Source: Candidatus Kapaibacterium sp. (GTDB lineage: Bacteria > Bacteroidota > Ignavibacteria > Kapaibacteriales > UBA2268). From it: 64,000 nt of DNA. Shown here piece after piece: positions 6,283 through 11,883 of this stretch. The notes beneath the pieces were generated by a model, which did no database searches, was not told the DNA's origin, and saw only the letters and a list, made by a program, of their open reading frames with translations. The translations under genes were made by a program, and so were the position numbers. Location of the stretch: positions 2,912,001 through 2,976,000 of the forward strand of contig OY761611.1 in assembly GCA_963664875.1 (NCBI GenBank), read 5' to 3'. The stretch's first letter is position 1; every line of letters begins with the position of its first letter.

Positions 6283-6348
6283 GAGACCTTTTACAATTAA
6301 ATGTGTTTATCATTATAGATAGATAATTTTATGTTGTGGAGGTATAAG

Positions 6349-9300
6349 ATGAAAACGTTATTTTACATATTATTTTTAATTGCAAGTGTAGCAAGTTTAA
6401 GCGCAGTAGAGTGGGAAAAAATTGATTTACCATCTTATCCGTATTATGAGGTCAAACATAACTCCAACCTTTCTGAATTAGAAATACACGGGGTGGATTC
6501 TTTACCAAAACCTAAAGCAAAGTATCAAGTCGATTATGATTTCGAATCAACTATTTGCCAATCCTTTTTCGATTTAGGAATAGATACTGTAGATTTTAAA
6601 AGTAATCACAGTATTGCTAATCCTTTTTTCAATGTACTATTTGTATCAATTCCTTCGCAAGATAAATGCCTATATTCAAAGGACGGAGGTCGAATTTGGG
6701 CAGTTACCGGCTCAGAAATAGAAAATTTGTCTTTTGGTGCTCTGTTTGAGTCGGTTGTTGTTGGCAATAGCTTTTTTGTATGCCCACATACACCGGATGT
6801 AATATTGCAAACTAAGGATTCTTGTAAAACATGGACAATATTTGCTGATGATATATCTGATCAAAAATTGGACCCTAGCTATAACCAACTTCAGGCAGTC
6901 AATGATTCTACACTGTTTTATATACAGCAATCAGCTTATTTTCTTGATTCTACAGTCTATCATAATACGATAACAAACAAAAAAGAATCTTCAGTTATTC
7001 CTTCTTACATGATGAAATGGTCTTATGATCCAACAGTTGTGAGAGGAGATACAATAGATTATTTTTTATGGTATTTGCCTAGCTATATATACAGAAGCAT
7101 TGATAGAGGTAATACATGGGGAATATGGTTTGATATGACAGATGTGTTTCACAAACTAGCTCCGGCAGCTGCTAATCAAGGAATTGAATATACTTTTGAT
7201 GGTGATGTAATAACAGCAGTCATGGACAGAAAGGGTTCGGATGGTAAGTTTGAAAACCGATATTGCGTTTCTCCTGACTATGGAAAGACATGGTATTTTA
7301 CCGACAAGGAAAAACCAATTGTAATCAATGGTGCATGTTATTTCCCAAAAGGCACATATATTCAATATGATACATTATTAGATTTGCGCTCAAACGCTTA
7401 TTTTTTGGGTACTGATTATGGAACTTATAGAGAATCCGGCAATAAAGCATACTATCAAACTAGAGTGACAAATAATAATGACATCAAAAATCTAAATCAG
7501 GTAACATGGGACAAGTATAATTTCACAGAGGAGCAAATATATCTTACAAAACATGATAAAGAATATTTCCTTGATGAAGGTATATTACATCTCCGCAAAC
7601 AACCGGAATCAATAGAATTGGCTTCAAGTATCTCTTCTTTTGAAGTAATTTTAGAAACTCCTTGGCTTGATATTCTGCTTTGCCAAAACTCAGAAGAGAA
7701 TTCACATCGATTGTTATATATCAAAGATTCAGAAGTTGTTGAAGAGATGTTAGTAACAGAAAATCAAGAAATTTTTGCAGGTATAAATACAGAAAACCCG
7801 GATCAGATATATTACATTTATATAGAAAAATCCGATAATATTAAGCTCATATCTGAAGATATAAATAAAGCAGGTAAAGATACTATTGAATTGAATCTTG
7901 ATATAAATGATGATAAGATTATCAAGTCCATTCTTAGCGGAGACAACTTATATCTAATCGGCAAAGAGAAGCTGTATATATCTGACAACAAAGGTTCTTC
8001 ATTTATATCAATTACAAACCCTCAAACATATAAAGCAAAAGATGTTTTGTGTGACAACGTAGCAGTATATCAAGGTGATATTTATACTTCGGGATCAAAA
8101 GGAATTCTAAAGCTAAATGATAAACTTGAATGGGAAAACGTGCTTGATAGTGTTACAACTGCTTATGCTTTTGCAGTAGAGTTTTTGAACAATAAAATCT
8201 ACGCTTACACAGAGGAAGGACTTTTTGTAAGCCTGGCTACCAATAAAGTCAGCACAGAAGACGGAAACCGAAATACAATTATTGAAACATCCGGTGGAAT
8301 CTATTTTGGCTACTCAAATGTCTTTTGCTTTTATGCAGATCGGCTGCAGCAAGAATATGCCGGCAGATTCTCCTATGTTGTTTATCACGGGAATTACGAA
8401 AGTAGCACTCCTAAAAATGATACTGATCCCGATTTTAGAACAGAGGGAGCAGACAGTGTACTAGCATATATTCGGGATTTAAACGAATTGAACAGGAATT
8501 ATTATATTGATATTACGGATGGCGATGAAGTTACTGATCCGATGGACAAAATTCACGCCCAGACTTCAGAAGTAAATATATCAGTTTCAGCAGATGTAAA
8601 CCCTAATACAAGGGAGCTTACTGCAAATGTTTCCTATTTGTACAAAAAAGAAGGTAGTGGCTCGCATACTTTGTCTGTATTCCTGCTTCAGGACTATATA
8701 AAAGGAAAACAAGAATTGTATACAAATGTTTTACTACCACCATTGGCTCTGGATGGTCAATATTACCACCGCAACGTGTTCAGAATGAGCCTAAGTGACG
8801 ATGCTAAAGGAGACAAAATACCGAATACTTCTGAAGGTATTTACGGCGAAAGGAATTTTAAAATTATCTTACCTGACACAATTGGAAATATCAAACTTGA
8901 ATTGGCCGATTTGAAGCTTATAGCTTTTATAAACAAAGAAGATGAATATAAAGAAGTTTTGCAGGTTGTAGAAACTGAAGTAAATCTTCCTGACAAAAAC
9001 CTTGTAAATCTGAACATAGAAGACATTACAGAAACTAAATATGAGTATTTCTTTAATGAATTTATTCCTAAAGTTCACATTACAAACTATGGTTCAACTA
9101 ATATAAATCAGTTTGATTTGAACTTGAAACTTACAGACACTACTTACTCAAATACATACTATGAAAAAATCAATAACAACTTTGCTAAATCTGTTATTGT
9201 TGATACTGTTAAAGCTGATTTTGTCGGGAACTATTCCTTTGCAGTTACAGGTTTTGGGAATATTAACAATTCCCACGTGACAGGAGAATATATTGCGGAC

Positions 9301-10461
9301 AATAATCCCCTAGATAATGATTGTTTGATAGAGGGCATTAGGCTCCAAAGAAATGCTTTTGTATATACCCAATTTACTTTTGAAGAGGATTCAGATAAGA
9401 ACTATGGTATAGAATATCGCAATGGTCTTTCGGTTCAACTTCTAAAATCTACAAATGGAGATTCAATTGGTGCAGAAAATTCCCATAATACTTTACAATT
9501 TTATTTAGGTAAATCAGGTGAATATGAGTTTAAAACAGCTTATGTAGTTTTTGGAGAAGCTGATTTTACTAGTGTATCTGAAGCTTATATGTCTTACTAT
9601 TATGCGTATTTAGCCGACGAAGCAGGCGGAACTCTACCAACTTGTACTTCTGAGTACTCTACTGACGACGGTAAGACTTGGATAGAAATACATTCTATGA
9701 ATCTGAAACAAACATCCTCAACTAAATCACCTTATCATAAACTTCATTCAGATGAATATATAAAAGAGTATGTTCCCATAAAGGAATGCATAGGCAAAAA
9801 AGTGATACTTAGAATTGGCATTACAGCCGGCTTAGACGGTTTAGCCTGCTGGCTCGATCAGATTAGTATAAGCAACTCTGCTCCTATTTTGTCAGCATCA
9901 ACAGATAAAATGGATTTTGGCAAAGTAACAATAGCAGATAACTCATACAGCGAAAGAACAGTACAGTTAAATAATATCGGCTCTGAAACACTTACACTCG
10001 AATCATTCAATTTCAGGGGCGCTGACGCTGCAGCCTTCGAATTTGTAGATATTCAAAAGGATACAAGCTTGGCAGCGGGAGAATCGCTGATTGTAACAAT
10101 CAGATTCACTCCGAAAGAAAATTCGCAATATTTAGCAAACTTAGAATTTGAAACAAATGATCCGGAAAACAAAACTTCGATCATCAGATTAGAAGGTTGG
10201 GGAGAAGGAACATCTATAGCTGAGAAAGAAACATCAGAAGTCTCACTTTCTATCTCTCCTAACCCTGCCTCTGAGTATATTTACTACTCATTTGGCGGCA
10301 ATATAGAGCAAATAGAAATAATCGACCTAAACGGCAAAACATTCCAAACAGAAAGCAACGGAAACCAAATTGATATTTCAAATCTAAGTTCAGGCACTTA
10401 CTTCCTGAAAATAAAATCCGACGGCAGAGCTTTCTTGAAGCAGTTTGTTGTAGCCAGATAA
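6349..10461 (+). CDS. Large secreted protein: Asp-box (BNR) propeller, Omp28-like domain, choice-of-anchor D/ASH-like Ig domain, T9SS type A sorting domain
   Basis: Signal peptide MKTLFYILFLIASVASLSA; S/T-x-D-x-G-x-x-W repeats; Omp28-like FLLQD...YYHRNVFR; MDFGKV...NNIGSETL...TNDP; CTD ISPNPASEYI...IDISNLSSGTYFLKI...KQFVV. Confidence 0.8.
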   Translation: MKTLFYILFLIASVASLSAVEWEKIDLPSYPYYEVKHNSNLSELEIHGVDSLPKPKAKYQVDYDFESTICQSFFDLGIDTVDFKSNHSIANPFFNVLFVSIPSQDKCLYSKDGGRIWAVTGSEIENLSFGALFESVVVGNSFFVCPHTPDVILQTKDSCKTWTIFADDISDQKLDPSYNQLQAVNDSTLFYIQQSAYFLDSTVYHNTITNKKESSVIPSYMMKWSYDPTVVRGDTIDYFLWYLPSYIYRSIDRGNTWGIWFDMTDVFHKLAPAAANQGIEYTFDGDVITAVMDRKGSDGKFENRYCVSPDYGKTWYFTDKEKPIVINGACYFPKGTYIQYDTLLDLRSNAYFLGTDYGTYRESGNKAYYQTRVTNNNDIKNLNQVTWDKYNFTEEQIYLTKHDKEYFLDEGILHLRKQPESIELASSISSFEVILETPWLDILLCQNSEENSHRLLYIKDSEVVEEMLVTENQEIFAGINTENPDQIYYIYIEKSDNIKLISEDINKAGKDTIELNLDINDDKIIKSILSGDNLYLIGKEKLYISDNKGSSFISITNPQTYKAKDVLCDNVAVYQGDIYTSGSKGILKLNDKLEWENVLDSVTTAYAFAVEFLNNKIYAYTEEGLFVSLATNKVSTEDGNRNTIIETSGGIYFGYSNVFCFYADRLQQEYAGRFSYVVYHGNYESSTPKNDTDPDFRTEGADSVLAYIRDLNELNRNYYIDITDGDEVTDPMDKIHAQTSEVNISVSADVNPNTRELTANVSYLYKKEGSGSHTLSVFLLQDYIKGKQELYTNVLLPPLALDGQYYHRNVFRMSLSDDAKGDKIPNTSEGIYGERNFKIILPDTIGNIKLELADLKLIAFINKEDEYKEVLQVVETEVNLPDKNLVNLNIEDITETKYEYFFNEFIPKVHITNYGSTNINQFDLNLKLTDTTYSNTYYEKINNNFAKSVIVDTVKADFVGNYSFAVTGFGNINNSHVTGEYIADNNPLDNDCLIEGIRLQRNAFVYTQFTFEEDSDKNYGIEYRNGLSVQLLKSTNGDSIGAENSHNTLQFYLGKSGEYEFKTAYVVFGEADFTSVSEAYMSYYYAYLADEAGGTLPTCTSEYSTDDGKTWIEIHSMNLKQTSSTKSPYHKLHSDEYIKEYVPIKECIGKKVILRIGITAGLDGLACWLDQISISNSAPILSASTDKMDFGKVTIADNSYSERTVQLNNIGSETLTLESFNFRGADAAAFEFVDIQKDTSLAAGESLIVTIRFTPKENSQYLANLEFETNDPENKTSIIRLEGWGEGTSIAEKETSEVSLSISPNPASEYIYYSFGGNIEQIEIIDLNGKTFQTESNGNQIDISNLSSGTYFLKIKSDGRAFLKQFVVAR

Positions 10462-10486
10462 AAACAATTATCAGTAGTAAAATCAG

Positions 10487-10521
10487 CAGAGGGTATATAA
10501 AAATACTCTCTGTTTTTTTTT
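10487..10521 (+). terminator. Intrinsic terminator after the T9SS cargo gene
   Basis: CAGAGGGTAT...ATACTCTCTG followed by T9. Confidence 0.85.
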
Positions 10522-10543
10522 GAGTTTTATATTCAGATGCAAT

Positions 10544-10657
10544 AAAAAAAGCCGCAATTCTTTGTTTGAATATGCGGCTCAGGGTTTAGTGCTAAGCTTG
10601 TATGAGTTAAGCTTTTATGAGTAGGGTTGTTACTAATTGATACGCCTGAGCTATTTA
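10544..10657 (-). ncRNA. Candidate stand-alone small RNA divergent from prfB
   Basis: Own consensus promoter, long imperfect stem, 15-nt tandem repeat, intrinsic terminator with U7; no ORF; 5' end approximate. Confidence 0.55.
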
Positions 10658-10664
10658 AAAGTTT

Positions 10665-10696
10665 CAAAACTATTTCCAATATTTTAGCTCTGCAAA
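10665..10696 (-). promoter_or_regulatory. Bacteroidota-type housekeeping promoter driving the candidate sRNA
   Basis: Minus strand TTTG-N20-TAGTTTTG matches TTTG-N19-21-TAnnTTTG. Confidence 0.65.
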
Positions 10697-10736
10697 AGCA
10701 TTTCTCGAAATCTTAACTTTTTCAGCTGATTTTTCG

Positions 10737-10744
10737 TATTTTTG
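10737..10744 (+). promoter_or_regulatory. Putative -7 element of the prfB promoter
   Basis: TATTTTTG 40 nt upstream of ATG 10785. Confidence 0.5.
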
Positions 10745-10784
10745 CTTAGTTATTATGTCAAATTTATTTTCGGGATATAAAATT

Positions 10785-11883
10785 ATGTTCGAACCGCAAA
10801 GAGAAAAGCTCAGAGGTTTGGAGTCAAGAGTCAATCAACTACGGAGGTTCCTTTGACATTGACGGTAAGTTAGCAATGATCAAAGAAAAAGAAGAACTCT
10901 CCCATGTCGAAGGCTTTTGGAATGATAATATCAAAGCTCAGGAGATAATGAGACAAATTTCGGAGGCGAAAGACTGGGTAAAGGTATGGGAGGACACAAA
11001 TGCTGCAGTGCAGGATGCAGTTGCCTTCATAGAATTGGCAGAAGAAGAAAAAGATGAATCCATGGAAGCTGATGCAAATGCAGAAGTAGAACAAGCAGAA
11101 AAAATTGTCAGTTCATTAGAAGTCCGAAAATTATTGGGTCACAAAGATGACGACAGAACCGCTATTCTTGCTATCAATGCGGGAGCCGGAGGCACTGAGG
11201 CATGCGATTGGGCTCACATGCTGCTGCGTATGTATGTGCGTTGGGCTGAAAGAAAAAATTACAAAGTTGCTTTGCTTGAAGAACTCGAGGGTGATGGAGC
11301 CGGAATTAAATCTGCTTCAATAGAGATTACAGGTAAGTTCGCTTATGGCTATTTAAAAGCAGAAAACGGTGTACACAGATTAGTTCGTATCTCACCGTTT
11401 GATTCGAATGCAAGAAGACACACTTCTTTTGCTTCTGTTTTTGTATATCCCGAAGTTGATGATGATATAGACATTGAAATCAATCCGGCTGATTGCGAAT
11501 GGGACACTTTCAGAGCCGGAGGAAAAGGTGGTCAAAATGTGAACAAAGTCGAAACAGCCGTCAGACTTAGACACATTCCATCAGGCATTGTGGTAGCCTG
11601 CCAGCAGGAACGTTCTCAATTCCAAAACAGAGAAAGAGCTTTGAAAATGTTGAAATCAAGGCTTTATAAAAAACGTATGGAAGAAGAGGAAAAAGAAAAA
11701 GCTGCTGTCGAGGGTGCTAAAAAGAAAATCGAATGGGGAAGCCAAATCCGTAGCTACGTTTTCCAACCATATACCATGGTTAATGACCACCGCTCTGAAT
11801 ACAAACGAACTGATATTCATGCAGTGATGGATGGGGATTTGGACGATTTTATAAAAGAATTTTTAATGCTGCTCGAAGATTAA
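10785..11883 (+). CDS. prfB: Peptide chain release factor 2, programmed +1 frameshift (about 365 aa)
   Basis: ORF0 [23 protein letters not shown] ends at CTT TGA C (10851-10857); +1 frame reads [11 protein letters not shown]; SPF and GGQ motifs. Confidence 0.97.
10843..10857 (+). promoter_or_regulatory. RF2 frameshift cassette
   Basis: Internal SD GGAGG, 3-nt spacer, CTTTGAC. Confidence 0.95.

Follow-up and report, generated by a model that had tools for sequence, protein, structure and literature searches.

The minus strand at positions 10544–10696 of a 64,000-nt stretch of DNA (the window) very probably carries a real sRNA gene, which represents a new family, is under selection, and is restricted to one genus. 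The sequence signals support a stand-alone non-coding gene with its own promoter and its own terminator, from which an RNA of about 115 nt would be transcribed divergently from prfB, starting at a Bacteroidota-type promoter and ending at an intrinsic terminator. The features of the locus are listed below; G000 denotes the genome under study and G001 to G004 the four other genomes of its genus.

10693–10696, minus strand: TTTG, -33-like element of the candidate promoter, assigned by sequence; at the same position in G001 and G004, absent from G002 and G003

10665–10672, minus strand: TAGTTTTG, putative -7 element of the Bacteroidota type TAnnTTTG; only the final TTG is invariant across the five genomes

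10544–10661, minus strand: predicted transcript of about 115 nt, its 5′ end placed by the promoter spacing and its 3′ end by the U-tract

10656–10661, minus strand: 5′ CUUUUA, invariant, which could form an alternative helix with UAAAAG, located immediately 3′ of ACUCAUA copy 1

10645–10651, minus strand: GCUCAGG, 5′ arm of the predicted closing stem, perfect in G000; GCAUAGG or GGAUAGG in the relatives, resulting in an A-A mismatch and a U-G pair

10623–10631, minus strand: AACAACCCU, predicted single-stranded tract, invariant in all five genomes, mean unpaired probability 0.55–0.90; complementary to AGGGUUGUU at -12 to -4 of ccoNO

10616–10622, minus strand: ACUCAUA copy 1, followed by AAAAG; invariant, unpaired probability 0.20–0.71

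10594–10614, minus strand: hairpin AAGCUU - AACUCAUAC - AAGCUU, with 6 of 6 pairs in all five genomes, none of them varying

10601–10607, minus strand: ACUCAUA copy 2, in the hairpin loop; loop unpaired probability 0.92–0.99 in all five genomes

10577–10583, minus strand: CCUGAGC, 3′ arm of the predicted closing stem, overlapping the 5′ arm of the terminator

10544–10580, minus strand: intrinsic terminator, stem GAGCCGCA(U)AUUC / GAAUUGCGGCUU followed by U7; stem kept, loop sequence and length varying among the five genomes

10785–11883, plus strand: prfB, encoding RF2, the conserved divergent neighbor, with the Pfam domains PCRF and RF-1

The promoter TTTG-N20-TAGTTTTG proposed in the initial annotation was found as placed, with TTTG at 10696–10693, TAGTTTTG at 10672–10665 and 20 nt between them, and all other sequence strings of that annotation were also located at their positions. 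In the window, the pattern TTTG-N18-21-TANNTTTG occurred 11 times, compared to an expectation of 2.36, and none of 100 shuffled sequences contained 11 or more copies. In addition, TAATTTTG and TATATTTG lie immediately 5′ of two tRNA genes. The enrichment and the tRNA genes together indicate that the Bacteroidota-type -7 box is in use here, which makes the match at the locus credible. The promoter boxes in the relatives are weaker than those in G000. At the other end of the gene, GAGCCGCA...UGCGGCUU followed by U7 (10580–10544) folds as a 12-bp stem with a single bulge, in agreement with the terminator and U-tract that had been suggested previously. A simple terminator scan of the window did not flag it, probably because of the bulge or the loop size. 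From these signals we infer the transcription of the sRNA and both ends of the RNA. Of the six sequencing runs listed as carrying the locus, none is recorded as RNA.

Selection was analyzed with an alignment of the five genomes that covered prfB plus or minus 1.5 kb, and the variable columns were counted per region:

sRNA body, 10577–10643: 5 of 67, plus one 1-nt indel

terminator: 9 of 32, mostly in the loop

sRNA 5′ end: 8 of 19

promoter spacer: 44 of 72

prfB promoter region, 10735–10784: 16 of 50

prfB codon position 1: 52 of 327

prfB codon position 2: 18 of 327

prfB codon position 3: 243 of 327

The sRNA body is as constrained as the second codon positions of the essential prfB gene. 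The sRNA and prfB form the sole aligning block; both outer flanks are unalignable, with mean identities of about 0.2–0.5, and contain different genes. This pattern of selection is our chief evidence for a function of the element. The predicted terminator adds a signature at the RNA level, because its stem is kept while its loop is free to change.

The claim that the locus contains no ORF had to be modified. A 48-aa frame with a TTG start is open on the minus strand (10533–10679) in G000, and a small protein encoded by this frame or by a short frame on the plus strand would be the corresponding explanation. However, a 1-nt indel (CCC-TAC versus CCCTTAC) shifts the 48-aa frame in the other four genomes, and thus, a conserved ORF is excluded. 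The segment of the frame that is retained in these four relatives has a stop codon upstream and no ATG, GTG, or TTG start, and the plus-strand frames contain stop codons in all five genomes. Furthermore, the substitutions in the sRNA do not show a third-position pattern, and the frame would run through the terminator hairpin. We regard a small protein as next to impossible.

Comparison with known RNA families was equally negative. At the gathering thresholds of Rfam 15, five tRNA genes were detected in the window and nothing at the locus, in accordance with the initial impression that the RNA is not a tRNA, SRP RNA, 6S RNA, or tmRNA. The region 10400–10900 was also scanned with cmscan against all 4227 Rfam families, with permissive filters and E values of up to 10. 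Nine weak matches (E 0.098–7.4) were obtained, far under the gathering scores, and the minus strand from 10544 to 10665 remained uncovered; no known family thus accounts for the RNA. The Chlorobi-1 RNA motif is a candidate stand-alone sRNA from the Chlorobi/Bacteroidota neighborhood that consists of stem-loops followed by an intrinsic terminator. By this description the two RNAs are alike, in being stand-alone and in having stem-loops and a terminator, but the permissive scan yielded no Chlorobi-1 match at the locus.

The distribution of the element was analyzed by blastn against 61 relatives and with a covariance model, R1. The element is single-copy in the 3.83-Mb genome. Full-length homologs, with identities of 83–88% including the flanks, were found by blastn in all four other genomes of the genus (G001–G004) and in none of the remaining relatives, and R1, which detected one copy in each of the five genomes, scored these homologs at 159–163 bits. 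The search for homologs near prfB that had been proposed retrieved the sRNA in a divergent orientation to prfB in five of five genomes. Outside the genus, R1 yielded three further weak hits (26–30 bits) in 130 genomes of the family, none of them with both ACUCAUA motifs; the one that was inspected (L044) overlaps a small ORF among short phage-like ORFs. In a set of 151 genomes of the order, R1 had no hit in the 148 genomes outside the genus. With filters switched off, the best match at 25 prfB loci of other genera had an unconvincing E value of 0.018, and 20 of these 25 loci were checked for CTCATA, which did not occur in the 690 nt preceding the prfB match. A motif scan of 185,579 species, each represented by one genome, retrieved six stretches. 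Four of them were the homologs of the genus; those in Flavobacterium tegetincola and Hormoscilla were dismissed as unrelated, one being coding-like and the other a tandem repeat. Searches of metagenome contigs with two patterns, and of viral contigs, phages, and plasmids, were all negative. Hence, the element is very probably restricted to one genus of uncultured Kapabacteria-like bacteria. The prfB proteins are 90–92% identical within the genus, but those of the next genera reach no more than 74%. The genus is therefore isolated, and an RNA that evolves rapidly could have diverged past recognition in its neighbors.

The linkage to prfB raised the question whether the conserved block is a cis-acting or DNA-level control element of prfB, either as a platform for a protein or because divergent transcription modulates the prfB promoter. 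Several observations fit such an element. The sRNA and prfB are the only syntenic block across the five genomes, with rearranged flanks; the two AAGCTT palindromes, with a spacing of 15 bp, could serve as binding sites for a protein; and the prfB promoter region is also conserved (see the counts above). However, the most conserved part lies 130–210 bp upstream of the prfB ATG, past the variable spacer, and the block ends in a hairpin and U-tract with the RNA-level signature described above. A counterpart was found neither at the 25 prfB loci of other genera that were searched with R1 nor at the 20 loci that were checked for CTCATA. That a 120-bp gene stays linked with an essential gene, across a spacer of about 90 bp with two promoters, may simply reflect a lack of tolerated breakpoints. 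Taken together, control of prfB in cis appears quite improbable. The sRNA had only one match to the prfB mRNA, which is 12 nt long, lies in the variable sRNA 5′ end, and was judged to be due to chance.

prfB itself has a programmed +1 frameshift site, CTTTGAC (CTT TGA C), at 10851–10857, which is preceded by GGAGG; its first frame comprises 23 codons. With the likely promoter of prfB, TTTG-N20-TATTTTCG, the 5′ UTR would be very short. On the other side of the sRNA gene lies a convergent gene (window 6331–10461, plus strand), which has its own terminator at 10485–10514. Its product of 1376 aa contains a HYDIN/VesB-like Ig domain and, at the C-terminus, a T9SS sorting domain; the four other genomes of the genus have different genes here. 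The earlier statement that no co-oriented gene follows the sRNA is valid for three of the five genomes, in which the next gene is convergent (G000, G001, and G004). It does not apply to G002 and G003, in which an ORF of 228 or 229 aa follows the sRNA terminator on the same strand (L049 in G002, L047 in G003). As a co-oriented ORF is found downstream in these two genomes only, a cis-regulatory leader, riboswitch, or attenuator was rejected.

The RNA contains a tandem repeat of 15 nt. Its two units, read on the plus strand at 10593–10607 and 10608–10622, differ at 1 of 15 positions and place ACUCAUA at 10622–10616 and at 10607–10601, exactly as had been described. Both copies, and the spacing between them, are invariant in the five genomes, so the loop motifs are conserved. 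Each 15-nt unit also contains the palindrome AAGCUU, and therefore, a 6-bp hairpin can form with the second motif copy in a 9-nt loop. The apical AAGCUU/AAGCUU stem of the initial annotation (arms 10614–10609 and 10599–10594) was indeed part of the predicted minimum free energy structure and is paired in five of five genomes. In G002 and G003, an A-to-G change in the loop results in a seventh pair, G-C, and reduces the loop to the 7 nt ACUCAUA, while the loop AACUCAUAC has 9 nt in the three other genomes. The proposed exposure of the motifs is consistently predicted for the apical copy only. Copy 1 is predicted to be mostly paired in G001 and G003, with unpaired probabilities of 0.20 and 0.27, respectively. 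For AACAACCC, unpaired probabilities of 0.55–0.90 were calculated.

The long stem that had been proposed to close the structure received a mixed result: GCUCAGG/CCUGAGC is perfect in G000, but the distal helix UUAGU/ACUAA is fully paired in this genome only, and three of its five pairs are broken in two to four of the four relatives. CCUGAGC overlaps the terminator arm GAGCCGCA, and therefore, the closing stem and the terminator cannot both be fully formed. An alternative helix between the invariant 5′ CUUUU(A/G)UG and CAUAAAAG, with eight positions and 90% of the cells paired, would cover ACUCAUA copy 1 and is dominant in the predicted ensembles of G001 and G003. In the five genomes, no pair has changed on both sides, neither in the structure of the initial annotation nor in the alternative 5′ helix. 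Two seemingly compensatory pairs in a 5′ hairpin of RNAalifold's own prediction were distrusted, as they come from five near-identical sequences. The fold of the whole RNA had a modest z-score of -2.16, and 4 of 200 shuffled sequences folded as well. The robust structure thus consists of the AAGCUU hairpin and the terminator, and the remaining fold is a model prediction from five near-identical sequences with five variable columns in the body.

We hypothesized that the sRNA acts in trans as a base-pairing regulator. The pairing tracts would be the invariant and mostly unpaired AACAACCCU(U)ACUCAUAAAAG and the apical-loop ACUCAUAC, which would bind a few mRNAs with a UAUGAGU start between about -12 and +6 and would thereby block initiation. 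The best leads for targets are ccoNO, which encodes a fused cbb3 oxidase subunit, and the gene for pyruvate:ferredoxin oxidoreductase (PFOR). Base pairing at start regions is our best guess at the mechanism, albeit a tentative one, and protein binding comes next. The explanation as a whole, i.e., an sRNA gene combined with trans base pairing at start regions, is likewise somewhat more likely to be wrong than right. We infer the action in trans and every target from the sequence.

The start regions were compiled from 2747 crude gene calls (the longest ORFs of at least 100 aa, starting at the first ATG), which blurs all statistics on start regions. With this set, a specific targeting of UAUGAGU starts, as suggested in the initial annotation, did not emerge. 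The string was present at 28 of 2702 crude ATG starts, and about 33 were expected from the product of the frequencies of U at -1 and AGU as second codon, so it is not enriched. When about 2,700 start regions were ranked by their coverage with 8-mer complements to the sRNA, ccoNO came first with 19 nt, a value that was also reached by 35% of 200 shuffled RNAs. Duplex energies were calculated for two sRNA pieces of 27–28 nt, segments A and B, paired against all start regions. The means of the top ten were -17.49 for segment A versus -16.74 ± 1.09 for 25 shuffles, and -19.83 for segment B versus -17.41 ± 1.35 for 25 shuffles. The start-region duplexes are thus not clearly better than those of shuffled sequences, and there is no statistical support for start-codon targeting. 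A duplexfold calculation with the whole RNA against the start regions was discarded, as it produced unrealistic structures with long loops.

The premise that targeting of AUG rather than of the SD motif would suit an SD-poor lineage did not hold either. SD-like 4-mers were present at -18 to -4 of 887 of 2746 crude starts, compared to 138 and 223 in the control windows, i.e., at 32% of the crude starts versus 5–8% in the controls. They show a sharp peak at -12/-10, and the 3′ end of the 16S rRNA carries CCUCC. The genome combines TAnnTTTG promoters with a clear usage of SD motifs and makes far more use of them than in the SD-less situation described for Bacteroides.

Five individual candidate sites were checked in the four relatives, and three of them were conserved. 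The ccoNO start, UUAGGGUUGUUUU(U)AUGAGUG, contains two complements of 9–10 nt to adjacent invariant sRNA tracts, which are kept in five of five genomes; however, the two complements are in the wrong order for colinear pairing with one sRNA molecule. In the PFOR gene, CUUGUAUGAGU is an 11-nt complement to ACUCAUACAAG and is also kept in all five genomes. The nusG start does read TTATGAGTT, as noted at the outset, with a match of 8 nt only, and UAUGAGUU is again kept in five of five genomes. The start regions of ccoNO, PFOR, and nusG are conserved throughout, and therefore, the conservation of the sites is not specific and does not discriminate. The three complementary sites are predicted leads only. 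The two other sites, AUGAGUAGGGU at fliF, which spans the sRNA indel, and a site at a PAS-kinase gene, are unconserved in the relatives and were rejected. The fliF gene (G000:C1:2904800-2906900, L082) encodes the flagellar M-ring protein, and the lineage appears to encode flagella beside T9SS cargo.

ccoNO (G000:C1:3053323-3055467, minus strand, L085) is a fusion of CcoN and CcoO that encodes 715 aa (COX1 and FixO). In the genus, its start lacks a GGAG-type SD motif and reads UUAGGGUUGUUUUAUGAGUG. A search for ccoN in other genera, which are devoid of the sRNA, yielded 11 loci, one of which (G009) was dropped because it lies at a contig end and its match starts only at residue 50. The remaining 10 start regions have a GGAG-type SD motif and no site like that of ccoNO. 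This contrast between genera is compatible with a genus-specific pairing, but also with plain divergence.

In a scan for exact complements to the sRNA, 623 matches of at least 10 nt were found. The longest of them (13–15 nt) are located in stretches with stop codons in all three frames of the matched strand and are therefore probably antisense or non-coding. An 11-mer complement that is repeated five times was rejected, as it lies on the non-coding strand of tandem paralogs. The respective region (G000:C1:1109000-1116000) contains a tandem array of at least five units, each about 1.3 kb long, with nearly identical ends; the 11-mer and its flanks occur at 1109252, 1110568, 1111881, 1113198, and 1115815, and the units are probably tandem paralogous genes on the minus strand.

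A different function would result if the RNA bound a protein, as a sponge or as part of a ribonucleoprotein. The two ACUCAUA sites would then be offered to a dimeric or two-domain RNA-binding protein, which the RNA would titrate or serve as a functional partner. CsrB/RsmY/RsmZ-type sRNAs are examples of protein-sequestering RNAs, in which a short motif (GGA) is repeated in or beside hairpin loops. The RNA described here resembles them in the exposure of a repeated motif in or beside a hairpin loop and in the conservation of the whole RNA instead of one seed; it differs in that it has two repeats only, in the motif, which is ACUCAUA and not GGA, and in the lack of an Rfam match. The constraint on the whole 67-nt body, comparable to that on second codon positions of prfB, extends beyond short seeds and is at least as compatible with a protein-bound or structured RNA as with a pairing RNA. 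The invariance of both motif copies and of their spacing points in the same direction, as does the lack of a statistical sign of mRNA targeting. On the other hand, there are just two copies of the motif, and the first is mostly paired in G001 and G003. Furthermore, no candidate protein is linked to the gene, as the neighbors other than prfB differ among the five genomes, and ACUCAUA is not over-represented genome-wide, with 236 and 261 copies on the two strands versus about 400 expected from a rough estimate based on composition. We consider protein binding unlikely, yet worth bearing in mind.

It had also been pointed out that the motif resembles the anticodon loop of tRNA-Met. The RNA could accordingly imitate the anticodon loop of tRNA-Met or tRNA-fMet, or serve as an AUG decoy, and thereby engage the initiation machinery or a tRNA-modifying enzyme. 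Both motifs contain CUCAUA, a string known from tRNA-Met loops, and the loop around copy 2 has 7 nt in G002 and G003. In an anticodon loop, a U occupies position 2 and the anticodon occupies positions 3–5. In the 7-nt loop ACUCAUA of G002 and G003, however, the U is at position 3 and CAU at positions 4–6, so the analogy is out of register. In addition, the loop has 9 nt in the other three genomes, copy 1 is outside of any hairpin loop, and the tRNA covariance model had no match at the locus, even with E values of up to 10. An anticodon mimic is therefore barely credible.

In a further reading, the RNA would not be an ordinary pairing sRNA but a dedicated translation-linked ribonucleoprotein or decoy, kept beside the RF2 gene. 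Its two invariant CAU heptamers, at a spacing of 15 nt, would contact either a dimeric RNA-binding protein or the initiation apparatus, where the partner could be mRNA near the AUG on the 30S subunit, one of the initiation factors, or a Met/Ile-tRNA enzyme. The translation of genes with UAUGAGU starts, such as ccoNO, PFOR, and nusG, would thereby be set as a group. This proposal, including the choice of partners, is speculative and very improbable.

With trans base pairing as the preferred reading, the closest analogs in kind would be the intergenic trans-acting sRNAs of Bacteroidota, such as GibS of Bacteroides thetaiotaomicron, the conserved single-stranded seeds of which pair across the start codons of BT_0771 and BT_3893 (Ryan et al. 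2020, PMC7366714). Pairing across start codons is the mode that we propose for the present sRNA. As described in that report, sRNAs of this type are intergenic, have a Bacteroidota-type promoter and a Rho-independent terminator, and are about 100–150 nt long; they are AT-rich, conserved within one genus only, and have long conserved tracts that are predicted to be single-stranded. The RNA described here shares these properties. However, it has no similarity to GibS at the level of sequence or covariance model, and no Rfam family of Bacteroides sRNAs matches the minus strand of the locus. Moreover, GibS stems from another class of the phylum and is backed, according to the same report, by start-site mapping, structure probing, and validated targets, whereas the present RNA is a prediction from sequence.

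Orphan sRNAs that are restricted to one genus are numerous in bacteria, and therefore, the general significance of the finding is modest: the gene is of an ordinary kind, while its lineage is unusual and uncultured. Almost all that is known of this Kapabacteria-like lineage comes from metagenome-assembled genomes, and its RNA biology has yet to be explored; in the literature on Kapaibacterium, judged by titles and the beginnings of abstracts, no work on RNAs was found. If it is transcribed, the RNA would, to the extent of our searches, be the first candidate sRNA described from the Kapabacteria-like branch of the Bacteroidota. With a constraint at the level of second codon positions and two leads for targets, an oxygen-reducing cbb3 oxidase and an oxygen-sensitive PFOR, it is a clean candidate for functional study.
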